Shown here: positions 9,010 through 64,000 of the stretch, in pieces | Position numbering within the stretch: position 1 is the stretch's first letter | How the letters are laid out: every line of letters starts with the position of its first letter | Virus record (IMG/VR): IMGVR_UViG_3300049460_000134 | Location: 32,001 to 96,000 of that record | Strand: one strand, 5' to 3' | Length of the DNA stretch: 64,000 nt | Source: a virus | Program-made: the position numbers and the translations under genes | The notes under the pieces: generated by a model | Seen by the model: only the letters and a program-made list of their open reading frames with translations | Database searches by the model: none | What the model was told of the DNA's origin: nothing

Positions 9010-9111
9010 AAGCGCGCAACCCTTCGAACTCTCGCTATTATGTTCTTAGCGAATTAGCGAATTCGCTAAGAACTAACGAACCAAAGAACCATCGAACCAA
9101 AGGACTTAGTT

Positions 9112-51788: not shown

Positions 51789-52145
51789 TCAATTAGCCTC
51801 TGGTGATATGGCAGGTTTTCTTTTCCTCGAGCCCTTCAGTTTCAGCCGTGGCTCAGGGCGCAACTGGATATACTCTTCCAGCATCATGAGCATTTCAGCA
51901 GCCGCGGCGGCCGCCACGAACGCAGCTCTTGCCTCTTCCGGATCAACCTTGCCTTCCATAGCGGCCAGGCACACCAGTTGCGCGTTCTGCCACTCCTCGC
52001 CGCGGTCATCTTCAGGCCAGCGGAAGACCAGGCTGTAAGCCAGGTCGCCAAGGGTAGCGTGCCGGCGCATGTTCACGCCTTTGCGCTTCTCGATGCAGAC
52101 GATGGCATCGCGGATGCTCATGTGCTCGCCAATGTATTCAGCCAT
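51789..52145 (-). CDS. DUF982 family protein
   Basis: WP....W..A..VCLAAMEG...PEEARAAFVAAA..A; family typical of Rhizobiales. Confidence 0.75.
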   Translation of the reverse strand: MAEYIGEHMSIRDAIVCIEKRKGVNMRRHATLGDLAYSLVFRWPEDDRGEEWQNAQLVCLAAMEGKVDPEEARAAFVAAAAAAEMLMMLEEYIQLRPEPRLKLKGSRKRKPAISPEAN

Positions 52146-52299
52146 ACGCATTACCTCCAAGGGAGTCCAAGGTAGGCGTCACATGTTACGAATCCAAGAG
52201 CCATATTAGAGTCGCCTAAAAGAATCTTCCGAACATAGCCGCGAGCTTCCCAGCAGCGAGCATGCGATAACAAATCATCAAAGACGAAGAGAGAAAGAG

Positions 52300-52665
52300 A
52301 GCTAACAGTGAGATCGCCATGTGAACGATGAGGGTAGCTACCTCGACCGCAAATAGCTCGGCTCCGATTAAGCTCGTCACGCTCATACGGTAGGCAGACC
52401 GCTACAATAGAGGATGGGATAGATATGCGCCCTACCCTCCGGCTGCTGAGTCCGCTTTGTCGCCCACTCGCTTAGAGATCCGGGGTGAAATCAATCCACC
52501 TGTATGCCTTGCGCCGAACCCTTGACCCCGGCAGGCGCATTGTCACAGCGAGCCATCGCTTGATTGCTCACGATCCACTCCCTACGCGGTGAAGAATGTA
52601 GCCTCGTTGTGAACCGAAGGACCGCTCGGAGTGAGATCAATGAACAATCGCCGCAAATAGCCACT
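52300..52665 (+). ncRNA. Candidate large structured non-coding RNA
   Basis: ORF-free region after a promoter motif, with several long-range stems and internal direct repeats. Confidence 0.45.
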
Positions 52666-52728
52666 TGGACGCCGTTCTCAAGTGTCGTATTCAGTAATTA
52701 TTGACTGACAAACACGAAAGAGCGAGCT

Positions 52729-53578
52729 ATGAAGCGCAAACCGACAAAGACCATAGAATTCACAGCGGCTGAGCACCGCGTCATCACGGCAATCGTCAAC
52801 GCTATCCAGTTCGGCGGCGACGTCGTCGTGGCAGCTCAGCGCGCCGAAGAGCGCAACAACGATGTGAAGCCGGTCGCTGAAGGTTCCGAGGAGGAACTAA
52901 TCATCTGGGGTAACATCACCGATCTCTTCCAAAAGATCCGGCTCGCCTGAAAGGAACAACAATGACCAAGGAACAAATCGCCGAGATCTGGGACCGGTAT
53001 TTCGAGATCGTCAGCGAGGACGATGATGACGTCGTGCCGGTGCATGGCGAGCTGGCTGAGAAGCTCAAGGCTCTGATCGCTGAGGCGCCATACCAGGGCA
53101 AGGATCCGATGTTCTGCACTGGCTTCTGGACATACGAGGACGGCAACCGTGCCTTTGAGATCAGCCTCCACCTCAACAGCGGCGAATCTGCCATCTGCGA
53201 CGCCGACGTCCCTGATGTGGATAAGCGCAGCGATCGCCTCGACAAGCTGCGCTGGGCCCAGATCCGCGCATTGCTGACGGTGGACGAGGCAAACGCCCTA
53301 GTCGAGTGTGCTGAGGCAATGGACCAGTTCGCCGACGAATGCGAGTCTCAAGGCAACGAGGTGTCAGCAGACGAGCTTTGGACCAAGGCAGGACTCGTGC
53401 AAAGCATGATGGCGTGCGCTCCATGATGACGGCAGCATATCAGACCAAGCTCCTCAAAGACCGTCGCACCTTGGCGCAGAGTAAGGTAAAGGCGTTGGCA
53501 GAGGGCGACGCCAAGCGAGCCGCTTACGAGAAGTGGATCGCCGAGCTCGACGAACAGATAATGGCTCTAGGAGGCTAG
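52729..53578 (+). CDS. Three small hypothetical ORFs
   Basis: 52729-52950, 52962-53426 and about 53423-53578. Confidence 0.45.
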
Positions 53579-54051
53579 GTATGATTGGCACAATTGAGCT
53601 CATGGCGTTCTTCTTCGTCGGCGGACTGATGTTCTGCACCGGCGTTCACTTCGAGCGCTGGCAGGTTCGCCAGGAGCAGAGGAGAGAATGGAATGACCGC
53701 TGATCCACGCCTAACCCGATCATTCGGCATCAAGTGGCCGCGGATCTTCCCTGGGACTATCTGATCCCTGGGTGTGTCACTGCCATCAAGAAGAGGCGCG
53801 AGCAAGCTGGGCACGACTTCATCCGGCTCTACGAGGCCTTCTACAAGAGCCGATAACAGTTTCAGGTAGGGGATCTGTCCGTGCTTCCCCTACAGCGCGC
53901 AGCCGGCGGTCGTGCTACCAAACAACACCGGCAGACTGCAGCCGTTCTCTTTCGGCGGTGATGCAGCATAGAGAGCCACGCCATACCCCAGGCGTGTGAA
54001 GTAAAGAGCGACTGTTGGCTCTTTCTCTCTATAGCCAGGTAGAGCCGTGGC

Positions 54052-56379: not shown

Positions 56380-56419
56380 GAGGCGGTAGGCACCCAAACC
56401 TACCGCCTCGCTTTGTTTT
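56380..56419 (+). terminator. Intrinsic terminator
   Basis: gaggcggtagg/cctaccgcctc stem plus T-rich tail. Confidence 0.7.
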
Positions 56420-56540
56420 GGCTATAGAGAGACCAAGGATATCCGTGGCAGCGGCCATTAGGAACCGGTGGGGTCCAAGGGACCGGCCGCTAGAAACCAC
56501 GCATGTCCGCTCCAGGTGTAGGGGAAGGATTGGGTTGATG

Positions 56541-56586
56541 CCGCGGCGATCCTAGGCGATCCGTGGCAGGCCGCGGCAAACCTTGG
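56541..56586. repeat. 10-bp phased CCNNGG array
   Basis: ccgcgg 56541, cctagg 56551, ccgtgg 56561, ccgcgg 56571, ccttgg 56581. Confidence 0.8.
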
Positions 56587-56707
56587 CTGAGGCATCGCCT
56601 CCCCTCTCCTATCCGTGCCTCGCCGGAGTGATCCAGAGATTGCCGATTGCATGCCTCTCTCTATCATCGTATCAGTAATTATTGACTGACAAACACAAGA
56701 GAGACAC

Positions 56708-57040: not shown

Positions 57041-57282
57041 GCCATAGCGAGCGTCGCTGACCGCGGCGCTTTCATTTGGCTTGTCGAGTGCCGTGGCGAT
57101 CCTTGGAACCCGCCGAGGGGCAGTCCACGCCACACCAGGCCGGTCCAGTCCTCATCCGGCCAGGCCAGGTCCACGGCACGTCAGGCCGCCTCACCCTGCA
57201 AGACCCCTGCAATGCCGATTTGATCGCCTTTAGCGACTTCGCTAAAACAATAATTAGCGAAACACGAAAGAGAGACACGCGC

Positions 57283-57606
57283 ATGACCAACGAACTCGTA
57301 AAGACCGCCGCCATTGCTCTGCTCAATCATCTGTCCACGATGAACGATGATGCCTTTGAGCGCGTCGATACCGACTACATCGACTATTCGCCTGACGCGC
57401 ACTTCACAGTCGCCTTGTTCGACGCGATCGAGCCAGCCAAAGACCGCAACTACTTCGACATGATTACCGAGTTCACCTACGAGCTCGCCAGTGTCACCAA
57501 GAGCGATGACGATCGTGCCGACGTCGATCGCTTCTGCACCAAGCTCTTCTCCGCCCTCCTCCGTTTCGAAATGAGCGAGAACATCCAGAGTCTCGACGCC
57601 TCATAG
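57283..57606 (+). CDS. Acidic hypothetical protein lacking Gly and Trp
   Basis: 107 aa; no GG on the coding strand. Confidence 0.55.
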   Translation: MTNELVKTAAIALLNHLSTMNDDAFERVDTDYIDYSPDAHFTVALFDAIEPAKDRNYFDMITEFTYELASVTKSDDDRADVDRFCTKLFSALLRFEMSENIQSLDAS

Positions 57607-57682
57607 CGCCGACAACATCCATTTGAACGCCTTTAGCGAATTCGCTAAATATTTAAGTGTCAACAACGTGAGAGCGAGACAC

Positions 57683-57853
57683 ATGCAAACGATCATTCCA
57701 GCGCCGACCGTCAGATACCACATAAAAGAAATGACGCCGCGCCAGTCGAACTTCGCAAGCCAAGCCCTGTCGCTTGCCAAGGAGACTGCCGCCTTCATTG
57801 CCTTTATCGTCTTCGTCTGTGCTGTCATCGCCGTGTGCGTGATAATCCACTAA
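57683..57853 (+). CDS. Small membrane protein lacking Gly and Trp
   Basis: C-terminal hydrophobic helix; followed by terminator 57860-57902. Confidence 0.45.
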   Translation: MQTIIPAPTVRYHIKEMTPRQSNFASQALSLAKETAAFIAFIVFVCAVIAVCVIIH

Positions 57854-58018
57854 GTCGAGAGCCAGGTCCGGACACCGCCATGTCACCGGACCTGGCTTTT
57901 TCATTGCCTGAAACCATGGCATGCCACGGTTGCCAAAATCAGGAACCGAGGCTATTCGTGCCAAGGGGATCCAGTCCGGCGAGTCCCGCTGGCGATGCCT
58001 GTCAATATATGAGCGCTC

Positions 58019-58083
58019 GCTACATCGCTCGACGCTTCATTAGTCGATGCTACATTACGCGCTGCTGCATTAGTCGACGCTTC
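58019..58083. repeat. Degenerate 15-bp tandem repeat (about 4 copies)
   Basis: gctacatcgctcgac / gcttcattagtcgat / gctacattacgcgct / gctgcattagtcgac. Confidence 0.6.
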
Positions 58084-58164
58084 GAAAGCGCACGCTCTCA
58101 CACCTCTTGCTCAATTAGCGCATGCTCACAGACACGCGCTCGCGAGCCTGTCCGTTTCCGCACC

Positions 58165-58203
58165 AAAAACAAAGAAAAGCACACGCTTGTTTAGCGTGTG
58201 CTT
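58165..58203 (-). terminator. Intrinsic terminator for the minus-strand genes
   Basis: aagcacacgct/agcgtgtgctt stem preceded by an A-tract; the stem contains no GG or CC. Confidence 0.65.
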
Positions 58204-58221
58204 GTATCTGCTTTTGCTGTT

Positions 58222-58401
58222 TTATTCAGCGCTCATGCGCTCGCGTTCTGTGGTGCGCACATAGTCGCGCATGTCGAAATACTCGCTTTCATAGTCGCGC
58301 TCTAACAGCGCAACGTCTGAGGTGTTAGCAAACGACATGCTAAGCGCTTGTCTGAAGTTGTCGCGCTCGCGACGCTCTTTCTTTGTCATGTGTATGCGCA
58401 T
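58222..58401 (-). CDS. 59-aa charged protein not in the ORF track, lacking Gly, Pro and Trp
   Basis: MRIHMTKKERRERDNFRQALSMSFANTSDVALLERDYESEYFDMRDYVRTTERERMSAE*; GAGAG SD; lies between an operator and a terminator. Confidence 0.5.
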   Translation of the reverse strand: MRIHMTKKERRERDNFRQALSMSFANTSDVALLERDYESEYFDMRDYVRTTERERMSAE

Positions 58402-58470
58402 TATCTAAATCTCTCGTTGGTGTTTCGTGTGAGTGTCAGTCAATTAAGACTGACACTCGTTTCTGTGGTG

Positions 58471-59055
58471 TTACGCGCTCAGCTTCGCTTCAATGAGCGC
58501 AAAGATTGCGTTGTTGTTGACTGCATATTCAGTCTTGTTTTTCTGCTCAATCAGATTGAGCGCATGCAGTGCGCGCATGCTCATGTTTGCATGTCGTGCA
58601 TAGTTCGCGAATTGCGTGCGACGCTGATAGATGAGCGCTTTTTTGGTGTCGTCGATTTTCGCGCTCGCGTTCAAGCTGTCTTCAATGTCGCGCACAGTGA
58701 AGTTTACATTAGCGTTCTTGAAGTTAACAAGCGTGCGCAACACTTCTTCGAGATTGCTCTTGAGGTGTTTTACATCGTCGCGCGTTGCGAACTTGAGCAA
58801 GCTATCAACACTGTTGATTGCTTTCATGCACATATACTTATTTTCGACGCGCTTGTCGTGCGAAAACACCTCAGAAACGTTGCTCTTCTTGAGCAACGCA
58901 GCAACGCTTTTCTGCGATACTGTGAGCGTTACATCAGTGATGAACTTGAGCGATGCAGCGCATGCACCATTTTTCAGTTCATCGTCATAGCGCTTGTTCA
59001 AATCTGCAGCGTATGCGTTGATCTTGACTTCGTTGTTCTTCGTTACTTCAGTCAT
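58471..59055 (-). CDS. Putative DNA-binding protein, GG/CC-depleted paralog of 55666-56346
   Basis: 194 aa with 1 Gly, 0 Pro and 0 Trp; alignable blocks with 55666. Confidence 0.65.
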   Translation of the reverse strand: MTEVTKNNEVKINAYAADLNKRYDDELKNGACAASLKFITDVTLTVSQKSVAALLKKSNVSEVFSHDKRVENKYMCMKAINSVDSLLKFATRDDVKHLKSNLEEVLRTLVNFKNANVNFTVRDIEDSLNASAKIDDTKKALIYQRRTQFANYARHANMSMRALHALNLIEQKNKTEYAVNNNAIFALIEAKLSA

Positions 59056-59612
59056 TTGCTTGTCTTTCTTTCGTTGTGCTGTTTAATCAGCGTTGTTAAC
59101 ATGTTCACTAAACACTTATTCGCAAAAACAGTCAAGCGTATCAGTCAAAAATAACTGACATTTTGCGAAAATAATTCGATGCACTCTATTTGACACATAG
59201 ACGCGCACTGACGCGCGTTGTGTGTCGTGCGCTGTCATCTATCGTTTTTGTGCGTCGCTGCATCCCTCGTGCAACGTCGTGACAATGCGCGCGTGATTGA
59301 TTCTCTAGTGTCGCGTGACAGTGTTGCTAGCGTGAGTTTTCGAGGTGAAAGCGAAGTCTTAGAAAAAAGTGCGTCGCTCGAAAGGGATGCCTCCTGCTGC
59401 GCCGACACTTCCCGGCTCGGACTACCTGTCCTCATTCCCGGCCTGGACGGACAGCATAGGTGCGGTATGCCGAGGCCCCTCCCCTGCTCTCCCCTCTACC
59501 AGACCGCCCAGATTCCCGGATCCCGGACTACCTATCCTTATGTGTCAGTAACTATTGACTGACATTCGACGCGCGGCTACAGTCGCCTCATCATCAACGC
59601 AGGATCTCTCCT

Positions 59613-62056: not shown

Positions 62057-62104
62057 GTCGCTAATTCCCGTTTGAACGATTTCGCTAAATCGTTACTTAG
62101 CGGA
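62057..62104. promoter_or_regulatory. TTAGCGA(A)-type repeats upstream of parA (candidate parS/autoregulatory site)
   Basis: tcgctaa, ttcgctaa and ttagcg immediately upstream of parA; the same unit recurs at 61074, 63731, 60181, 60421, 57230, 57633, 13108 and 9046. Confidence 0.5.
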
Positions 62105-63677: not shown

Positions 63678-64000
63678 AGAAAAGCTCCTGCGTTTGTCAG
63701 TCAATATTTACTGACACTACAACAGGAGCTGATTTAGCGGAAGCACGAATTAGCGAATTCGCTTAAGCAGGATCGATTTCCTCAATGAAACCGGCCTGTT
63801 TGGCCTTGCGCACGAGCTTGGAAAGCTTGGCGTTGTCCTTCAATAGCTCGTCGATCGAGTCCAGCAGGAACTTTTCCGTGACAGCGGCAAGACCGGTTGT
63901 GTTGAAGAAGTGGATCGGGTCCACAAGGCGACGTTCTGCGGTCATGCTGCTTTCCTCTGTGCTGCAAAGATGGACCAATCGAAATCCTGGTTGGCCGGCA

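Follow-up and report, generated by a model that had tools for sequence, protein, structure and literature searches.

A two-gene unit free of GG on one strand adjoins a two-strand GG/CC-depleted island in a viral genome

In the viral genome recorded as IMGVR_UViG_3300049460_000134, the plus strand of a small two-gene unit carries no GG dinucleotide over 597 nucleotides (nt), while CC occurs on the same strand at normal frequency. All positions refer to the window, i.e., the 64,000-nt stretch that was analysed, which corresponds to bases 32001-96000 of one contig of 115,555 bp. The asymmetry is genuine and a product of selection: proteins, codons, ribosome-binding sites and putative promoters have all been rewritten. 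The run forms the one-strand "shoulder" of a graded zone whose centre is an adjacent island of 1.1-1.4 kb, depleted of both GG and CC. The features of the run and its unit are listed below; L007 denotes an IMG/VR contig that is the closest relative, and P0006 and P0007 are the two encoded proteins, with lengths in amino acids (aa).

57185..57781, plus strand: GG-free run, 597 nt, CC normal
57069..57184, unstranded: GG/CC-rich spacer, left boundary of the GG-free run, partly conserved in L007
57220..57248, plus strand: putative sigma-70-type promoter of unit 1 (TTGATC, 17 nt, TAAAAC), read from the sequence, same layout in L007
57230-57245, plus strand: putative palindromic operator TTAGCGACTTCGCTAA, in the spacer of the first promoter
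57266..57275, plus strand: GG-less ribosome-binding site GAAAGAGAGA, 7 nt ahead of the ATG
57283..57606, plus strand: P0006 gene, 107 aa, acidic, 0 sense GG, 25 CC
57623..57651, plus strand: putative second promoter (TTGAAC, 17 nt, TAAATA), same layout in L007
57633-57648, plus strand: putative operator TTAGCGAATTCGCTAA, within the second promoter
57683..57853, plus strand: P0007 gene, 56 aa, tail-anchored membrane protein, conserved in all relatives
57860..57897, plus strand: terminator hairpin of the unit, 12-bp perfect arms followed by a T run, containing GG and CC
57898..57991, unstranded: GG/CC-rich spacer between the unit and the island

The run is the longest GG-free stretch of the complete genome, in which consecutive GG are on average 16.7 nt apart. 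The runner-up (580 nt, 58765-59344) lies inside the adjacent island, and outside this region no GG-free run of the whole genome exceeds 146 nt; similarly long runs are thus not common elsewhere. From the base composition of the run itself (126 G in 597 nt), the probability of finding no GG is ~2e-15, and in 20,000 mononucleotide shuffles of the run GG occurred 26 times on average and at least 12 times. In comparison, CC is found about 46 times on the plus strand over the same interval, with 25 copies in the P0006 gene and 15 in the P0007 gene (observed/expected ratios, o/e, of 0.69 and 0.88; genome median 0.70). The initial annotation had placed a GG-free run with frequent CC at 57186-57780, which proved correct apart from the slightly wider exact span.

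The run does not stand alone. When sense GG was counted per gene over 114 likely coding open reading frames (ORFs), the five lowest ratios belonged to five adjacent genes, both genes of the unit among them (P0006, 0; P0003, 0; P0002, 0.06; P0007, 0.12; P0001, 0.35), while the next ratio was 0.41 and the median 0.74. All of the genome's seven longest plus-strand runs without GG fall within 52.1-59.4 kb, the depletion fades leftward away from the island, and shoulder and island together make up ~2.2 kb with almost no GG on the plus strand. Since the five GG-poorest genes adjoin and the longest GG-free runs cluster in this interval, we read the run as the shoulder of a graded zone. The earlier description of the run as a half-strict version of the adjacent double-strand depletion therefore holds, in the form of a one-strand extension of the island. 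The outer edge of the gradient is the gene of the acidic 110-aa protein P0001 (56708..57040, plus strand; GG o/e 0.35, CC o/e 0.39).

Recoding is evident at the level of the proteins, the codons and the non-coding DNA. As the initial annotation had claimed, P0006 and P0007 contain neither Gly nor Trp but retain Pro (2 and 3 residues, respectively); with the amino-acid frequencies of the genome, the chance of finding no Gly or Trp in 161 residues is 8e-7. To separate codon choice from protein composition, the proteins were kept fixed and the codons redrawn from the usage of the genome. The 107-aa gene has 0 GG where 8.3 are expected (P=5e-5), and the 56-aa gene has 1 where 5.5 are expected (P=0.002), its single sense GG being part of AAGGAG at 57781. 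The 107-aa gene has 39 codons that are followed by a codon starting with G, and not one of them ends in G, as compared with 21 of 108 codons overall. Moreover, in the codon alignment of P0007 the relatives carry CCG GCG and AAG GAA where this genome has CCA GCG and AAA GAA, i.e., the GG at the codon junction was removed synonymously, and AAA is used at this junction even though AAG provides 87% of the Lys codons in the genome. GG is also missing from both putative promoters, the palindromic operator, the ribosome sites GAAAGAGAGA and GAGAGCGAGA and the intergenic DNA. These two sites show that the GAGAG Shine-Dalgarno sequences described previously were roughly right. GAAAG/GAGAG-like sites precede all five GG-poor genes and the L007 genes, and GG-containing ribosome sites are present in most other genes' start regions among those in the motif listing.

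Because codons, junctions and non-coding DNA are GG-free as well, protein composition alone cannot account for the run. We accordingly give almost no credence to the view that it is a by-product of composition or local codon usage, with small acidic helical proteins that merely happen to lack Gly and Trp. P0006 is predicted to be an all-helical acidic bundle, a class that tends to contain few Gly, but the GG expected with the proteins fixed are missing too, as are those of the promoter, operator, ribosome-site and intergenic DNA, the absence of Gly and Trp is itself improbable, and CC on the same strand is normal. A cause at the level of transfer RNA, such as the loss of Gly or Trp tRNAs, was rejected since most of the missing GG belong to codon junctions and non-coding DNA.

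A mutational footprint was also considered, in which a CC-specific cytosine deaminase of single-stranded DNA (APOBEC3G-like) or another strand-biased mutagen, at work on the exposed complementary strand, would have changed GG to AG or GA on the plus strand without selection. Several features would agree with it: the plus strand of the run contains 21% G compared with 28% in the genome and 27% A compared with 23%, the o/e of GA is 1.58 against 1.26, and both synonymous differences at conserved codons are changes from GG to AG. However, AG is not enriched (o/e 1.03 versus 0.96 in the genome), C is raised as well, and at the two synonymous sites A was the only base available for Lys and one of three for Pro. 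Neither ORF is disrupted, both score well as coding sequence, and the lack of Gly and Trp extends across P0006 homologues of 38-51% identity and to a non-homologous gene of L007. Clearing every GG while promoters, ribosome sites and proteins stay functional requires selection. Hypermutation of the APOBEC type was rejected on the grounds that AG is not in excess, the frames are intact and the absence of Gly is family-wide; for mutation without selection in general we see a very small probability.

Ahead of each of the two genes stands a TTGAyC-17-TAAAnn element with a 16-bp palindrome, TTAGCGAnTTCGCTAA, in its spacer, and this arrangement is conserved between the window and L007. Since a consensus promoter scan called neither element, we only infer that they are host-type promoters with an operator. 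No terminator was found between the P0006 and P0007 genes, and L007 retains the terminator hairpin of the unit with compensatory stem changes. The run thus appears to be one small early transcription unit with two promoters and a putative operator shared with the partition region. P0006 (isoelectric point 4.2) is predicted to form a five-helix bundle (predicted local distance difference test score, pLDDT, 86.7), for which Foldseek returned no match in PDB or BFVD and the ESM Atlas no usable match. P0007 has a C-terminal membrane helix. Searches of Pfam and PHROGs gave no significant match for P0001-P0007.

The 16-bp palindrome TTAGCGAATTCGCTAA occurs at window positions 9054-9069, 57230-57245, 57633-57648, 62073-62088 and 63750-63765, and one copy is located 18 nt upstream of a ParA gene. 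Its presence both in the promoters of the GG-free genes and in the ParA operon suggests, as far as sequence can indicate, co-regulation by one repressor, perhaps a small partition or regulatory protein.

The shoulder recurs in relatives from the Rhizobium group. In L007, whose P0002 is 84% identical, the equivalent strand contains 558 nt with one GG, the same promoter/operator layout, GG-less ribosome sites and a gene for a 103-aa acidic protein, P0023, without detectable homology to P0006. An exhaustive profile search retrieved three P0006 homologues (P0017-P0019; 51, 38 and 39% identity), one of which comes from a 119-kb contig of Ensifer sp. ENS10; they contain 0, 0 and 1 Gly and no Trp. 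No DNA encoding these three proteins was found in viral, metagenome or genome contigs by the related-locus search, and tblastn against plasmids was negative. In the RHEph10 clade and in B1VFA, the genes that occupy the slot of the shoulder show a mild GG depletion on the same strand (o/e about 0.3-0.7). Comparison of L007, the P0006 family and these milder clades indicates that the strict shoulder is lineage-specific and not an accident of one gene.

The features of the adjacent island are as follows:

57992..59384, both strands: island depleted of GG and CC, the residual ones almost all GGTG/CACC
58019-58093: five tandem 15-nt iterons, GCTnCATTAGTCGAy, at the downstream end of the island
58177-58203, minus strand: GG/CC-free terminator in the island
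58222-58401, minus strand: P0003 gene, 59 aa, in the island
58471-59055, minus strand: P0002 gene, 194 aa, predicted tandem winged helix (pLDDT 86.5)

The island is kept in RHEph10, Y2_11, N1_10, B1VFA, a Pararhizobium plasmid and the IMG/VR contig (L001-L004, L006, L007). In these relatives it spans about 1.0-1.2 kb and contains 0-3 GG/CC, even where P0002 identity has fallen to 26%. The P0002 family has almost no Gly, Pro or Trp. From its predicted fold, P0002 is probably a DNA-binding protein, possibly a repressor or initiator, and the iteron-like repeats could be its binding sites. Foldseek returned weak winged-helix matches only (MukE, the BpuJI recognition domain, ORC/Cdc6 and MarR; E >=0.09), and a profile search of PDB with P0002 found nothing. 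BLASTP gave no alignment between P0002 (58471-59055) and P0005 (55666-56346), and paralogy of the two is not supported.

In the islands of this phage (57992-59384) and of L007 (5800-6990), nearly all residual GG/CC belong to GGTG/CACC, mostly preceded by TGA or TGT, and 7 of 9 copies are on the plus strand. Several of their positions are common to the phage and L007 despite synonymous alternatives. In the islands of the RHEph10 clade, the residual GG/CC are mostly found in contexts other than GGTG/CACC. GGTG is tolerated in the present genome and in L007, yet it does not predominate among the residual contexts of the RHEph10 clade, which suggests that the specificity of a reader of this word drifts between lineages, as in restriction/modification enzymes.

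GG/CC-rich spacers of 100-200 nt lie between the early units and flank the island (56400-56620, 57069-57184, 57898-57991 and 59385-59540), and they are partly conserved in relatives. The spacer to the right of the island is C-rich on the plus strand in both the Rhizobium and the Nickievirus groups, and an 18-nt repeat, CGGACTACCTrTCCTyAT, was found at 59418 and 59524. Arrays of CCNNGG were rejected as a special motif, as the genome contains 405 copies with 404 expected and the arrays reflect the GG/CC-rich spacers.

The strand asymmetry limits what can have caused the depletion. Since this DNA contains many CC, each of which is a GG of the minus strand, neither a palindromic site nor a property of the double-stranded GG/CC step is possible. 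Avoidance of a palindromic Type II site would need equal depletion on both strands, and the counts are 0 for GG and about 46 for CC; the earlier argument that the asymmetry speaks against such a site was therefore justified. Depletion of a GG/CC protospacer-adjacent motif (PAM) of a CRISPR (clustered regularly interspaced short palindromic repeats) system would likewise need both strands; it would fit the island alone, but CC is abundant in the shoulder.

Three genomes of the distant Pseudomonas Nickievirus group were compared. Their global gene order is as here, with small plus-strand genes, the island, HslV, a minus-strand helicase, ParB and terminase, and the island operon is inverted between the Rhizobium and Pseudomonas groups. 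In nickie, the plus strand is GG-free over 1438 nt, of which only 1155 nt are also free of CC. The difference, a 300-nt stretch free of GG alone, is located on the left side of the island and covers a gene on the minus strand. This gene encodes a membrane protein of 63 aa with Gly and Trp but no Pro, and its messenger RNA (mRNA) has GG and lacks CC. The shoulder of phiK7B1 (~330 nt) carries no convincing ORF. In Nican01, the GG-poor stretch has a G-rich spacer on its right and spans a gene on the plus strand, which encodes an acidic protein of 85 aa. All three shoulders share the genomic strand, and the side of the island, with the shoulder of the window. Stenotrophomonas phage ANB28 showed no island within 1-14 kb or 86-108 kb, and an HslV-based search for further clades retrieved only the Rhizobium group and unrelated phages.

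These data bear on the question of whether the constraint acts on RNA, where freedom from GG would protect the mRNA of the unit against an endoribonuclease that cuts at a GG word, a repressor that binds GGA or internal pairing of the Shine-Dalgarno type while other mRNAs are cut or stalled. In the window and in L007 the depleted strand is indeed the sense strand of the first gene of the unit, and the left shoulder of Nican01 is also on the sense strand, but in nickie it covers a minus-strand gene and in phiK7B1 no convincing ORF at all. The P0006 family is free of Gly and Trp, and the ribosome sites avoid GG as well, using GAAAG/GAGAG, which may pair with the tail of the 16S ribosomal RNA (CUUUCU in alphaproteobacteria). 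Yet GG is present again at 57781, inside the second gene, and in the terminator at the end of this transcript. Both strands of the island are clean even though transcription there runs one way only, and the tolerated word varies by lineage. Thus, across these genomes, the depletion does not keep to the sense strand and the transcript boundaries as would be expected for an RNase of the MazF or RegB type. In addition, no RNase candidate was noticed in the annotation of Y2_11 between 1 and 100 kb (two-thirds of the genome), where no systematic search was made. We consider an RNA-level cause unlikely, though a serious contender. The initial annotation had offered two kinds of explanation: the RNase or repressor is at odds with the Nickievirus strand pattern, while the oriented DNA motif fits better; the analysis identified neither an RNase nor a repressor nor a guanine-modifying toxin.

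As the shoulder is found on the same strand whatever the orientation of the gene, and GG returns within a transcript, we favour a constraint on the DNA strand with fixed polarity over one on the transcript. A factor would read a short GG-containing word on the DNA, one strand at a time and with fixed polarity along the genome. It could be a defence nuclease that nicks DNA or tracks along it, an enzyme whose substrate is the strand exposed as the genome enters or its ends are resected, or a DNA-marking enzyme of the phage itself that is coupled to packaging; the last candidate would correspond to the ParB / ABC-ATPase genes that are located beside terminase in Y2_11 and nickie. The early region would have to escape this reader, with the island clean on both strands and its left flank on the plus strand only. 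We give polar reading of a GG word at the level of the DNA strand slightly less than an even chance. The analysis shows the depletion, its recoding at several levels, its return in relatives and its indifference to gene orientation; both the action of the reader on DNA and its nature are inferred.

Several observations weigh against this explanation. The analysis turned up no reader and no sign of a DNA modification, a nickase or a defence system. The strict shoulder is absent from the RHEph10 clade and therefore cannot be a universal requirement. The Nickievirus case draws on few lineages and consists of one annotated 63-aa gene and one stretch without a convincing ORF, and the comparison is a deep one, so the shoulders may not be homologous features. 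The strand depleted in the window and in L007 coincides with the sense strand of the mRNA, and an RNA-level cause may therefore apply in this lineage. The record starts of the genomes are arbitrary, and a polarity of entry or resection is hypothetical. Finally, one strand-aware reader alone would not account for an island with two clean strands.

The genome appears from its sequence to be that of a Rhizobium siphovirus phage-plasmid related to RHEph10, as its DnaE-type polymerase shares 78% identity with the polymerases of the Rhizobium phages RHEph10, RHph_N1_10 and Y2_11 and 66% with that of B1VFA. No phage or plasmid matched the region in a megablast search. This phage group comprises siphoviruses with plasmid genes (RepC, ParA), i.e., phage-plasmids (PMC4447125, PMC7969092, PMC12509600), and B1VFA has fixed ends with 3.6-kb direct terminal repeats, published without a map position (PMC12509600). 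Plasmid p5 of Pararhizobium qamdonense (NZ_CP119570.1, L006), a circle of 115,652 bp, carries the same island gene, island and synteny. As this island-bearing plasmid was found in a sequenced bacterium, at least one member of the group exists in the plasmid state. The annotation of Y2_11 (L010) includes a homologue of the T5 'A1 protein' and a sigma-70-family factor (record positions 52062-53924 and 68029-68664), which are of interest with regard to a T5-like stepwise infection programme.

A 22-bp quasi-palindrome, TGTCAGTAAATAnTGACTGACA, occurs in ~40 copies genome-wide, nearly all of them located 10-40 nt ahead of a start codon. Copies are found on early, replication and structural genes and ahead of both island genes; examples in the window are 56670-56691, 58434-58455, 59139-59160 and 59543-59564. 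From its placement it could be a phage-specific promoter element, given that relatives encode a sigma factor, or a dispersed operator like that of P1 C1. As regards longer words, GGNCC is strongly under-represented genome-wide (183 copies versus 321-396 for GG-Nk-CC with spacings of 2 to 8 nt and 481 for GGCC), and CCGG is over-represented (666). The scarcity of GGNCC looks like ordinary genome-wide avoidance of a restriction site.

Word avoidance is a footprint of what a phage most needs to evade, and here it costs Gly, Trp and the GG of the ribosome sites. The strand specificity narrows the search, since it excludes palindromic sites and double-stranded properties of the GG/CC step, and in combination with the Nickievirus data it suggests a reader that is polar and acts on one strand of the DNA. 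Putting GG back on either strand offers an assay route to an activity of rhizobia and pseudomonads, in defence or in DNA marking, that may be new, and the small acidic proteins of the shoulder can be flagged as candidate first-acting counter-defence factors. Tentatively, and as a proposal that may quite well prove wrong, we suggest that a superfamily of ~110-120 kb siphoviruses/phage-plasmids (RHEph10-like, Nickievirus and others) has been shaped by an enzyme that reads a GG word of 2-4 bases on one strand with fixed polarity. It could be a DNA-marking enzyme that is tied to packaging or entry and encoded by the conserved ParB / ABC-ATPase cassette next to terminase, or it could belong to a nicking defence of the host, and the earliest genes would be written in a restricted alphabet to escape it. 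If this is true, the one-strand shoulder is the first direct evidence of a strand-aware reader. What is new here is the one-strand shoulder, which recurs and does not depend on the orientation of the genes; our search of the literature on GG-dinucleotide avoidance in phages gave nothing relevant, and no paper describing the one-strand pattern was found.

Three known systems can be compared with this pattern. In phage T7, all sites of the Type III enzyme EcoP15I have the same orientation, which evades restriction. The likeness lies in an asymmetric word that is kept off one strand, by what would be strand-aware avoidance at the level of DNA against a reader dependent on site orientation. In the present case, all GG-containing words over 597 nt are on the minus strand; genome-wide there is no such bias. 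The word is as short as GG (with GGTG tolerated in the island), avoidance extends over about 0.6-2.2 kb instead of the whole genome, and its strength is such that the proteins are left without Gly and Trp and the ribosome sites without GG. We know of no Type III enzyme or site that would account for such a GG-word pattern.

The second comparison concerns DNA that enters the cell first, as the first-step-transfer (pre-early) DNA of T5 and the leading early region of T7 lack certain restriction sites. T5 avoids specific 6-bp palindromes. As in T5 and T7, small genes, here putatively early and with putative promoters of their own, are combined with the local absence of a word. The likeness to T5 also includes the large siphovirus type, fixed ends with direct terminal repeats (here in B1VFA; PMC12509600) and the T5 A1-like gene of the relatives. 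However, a dinucleotide is avoided here, in the shoulder on one strand only.

The third comparison is with mRNAs that lack cleavage sites: transcripts without ACA resist MazF, and RegB of T4 cuts GGAG in early mRNAs. Shared with these is the absence of a word from the sense strand only, including the ribosome site, together with synonymous recoding. In contrast, the Nickievirus shoulder keeps to one DNA strand irrespective of how the gene is oriented, the depletion of the island extends to both strands, and no cognate RNase was noticed in the same 1-100 kb of the Y2_11 annotation, again without a systematic search. The pattern described here thus differs from all three precedents in its shorter word, its locality, its cost in protein alphabet and ribosome sites, and its combination of a two-strand core with a one-strand flank.

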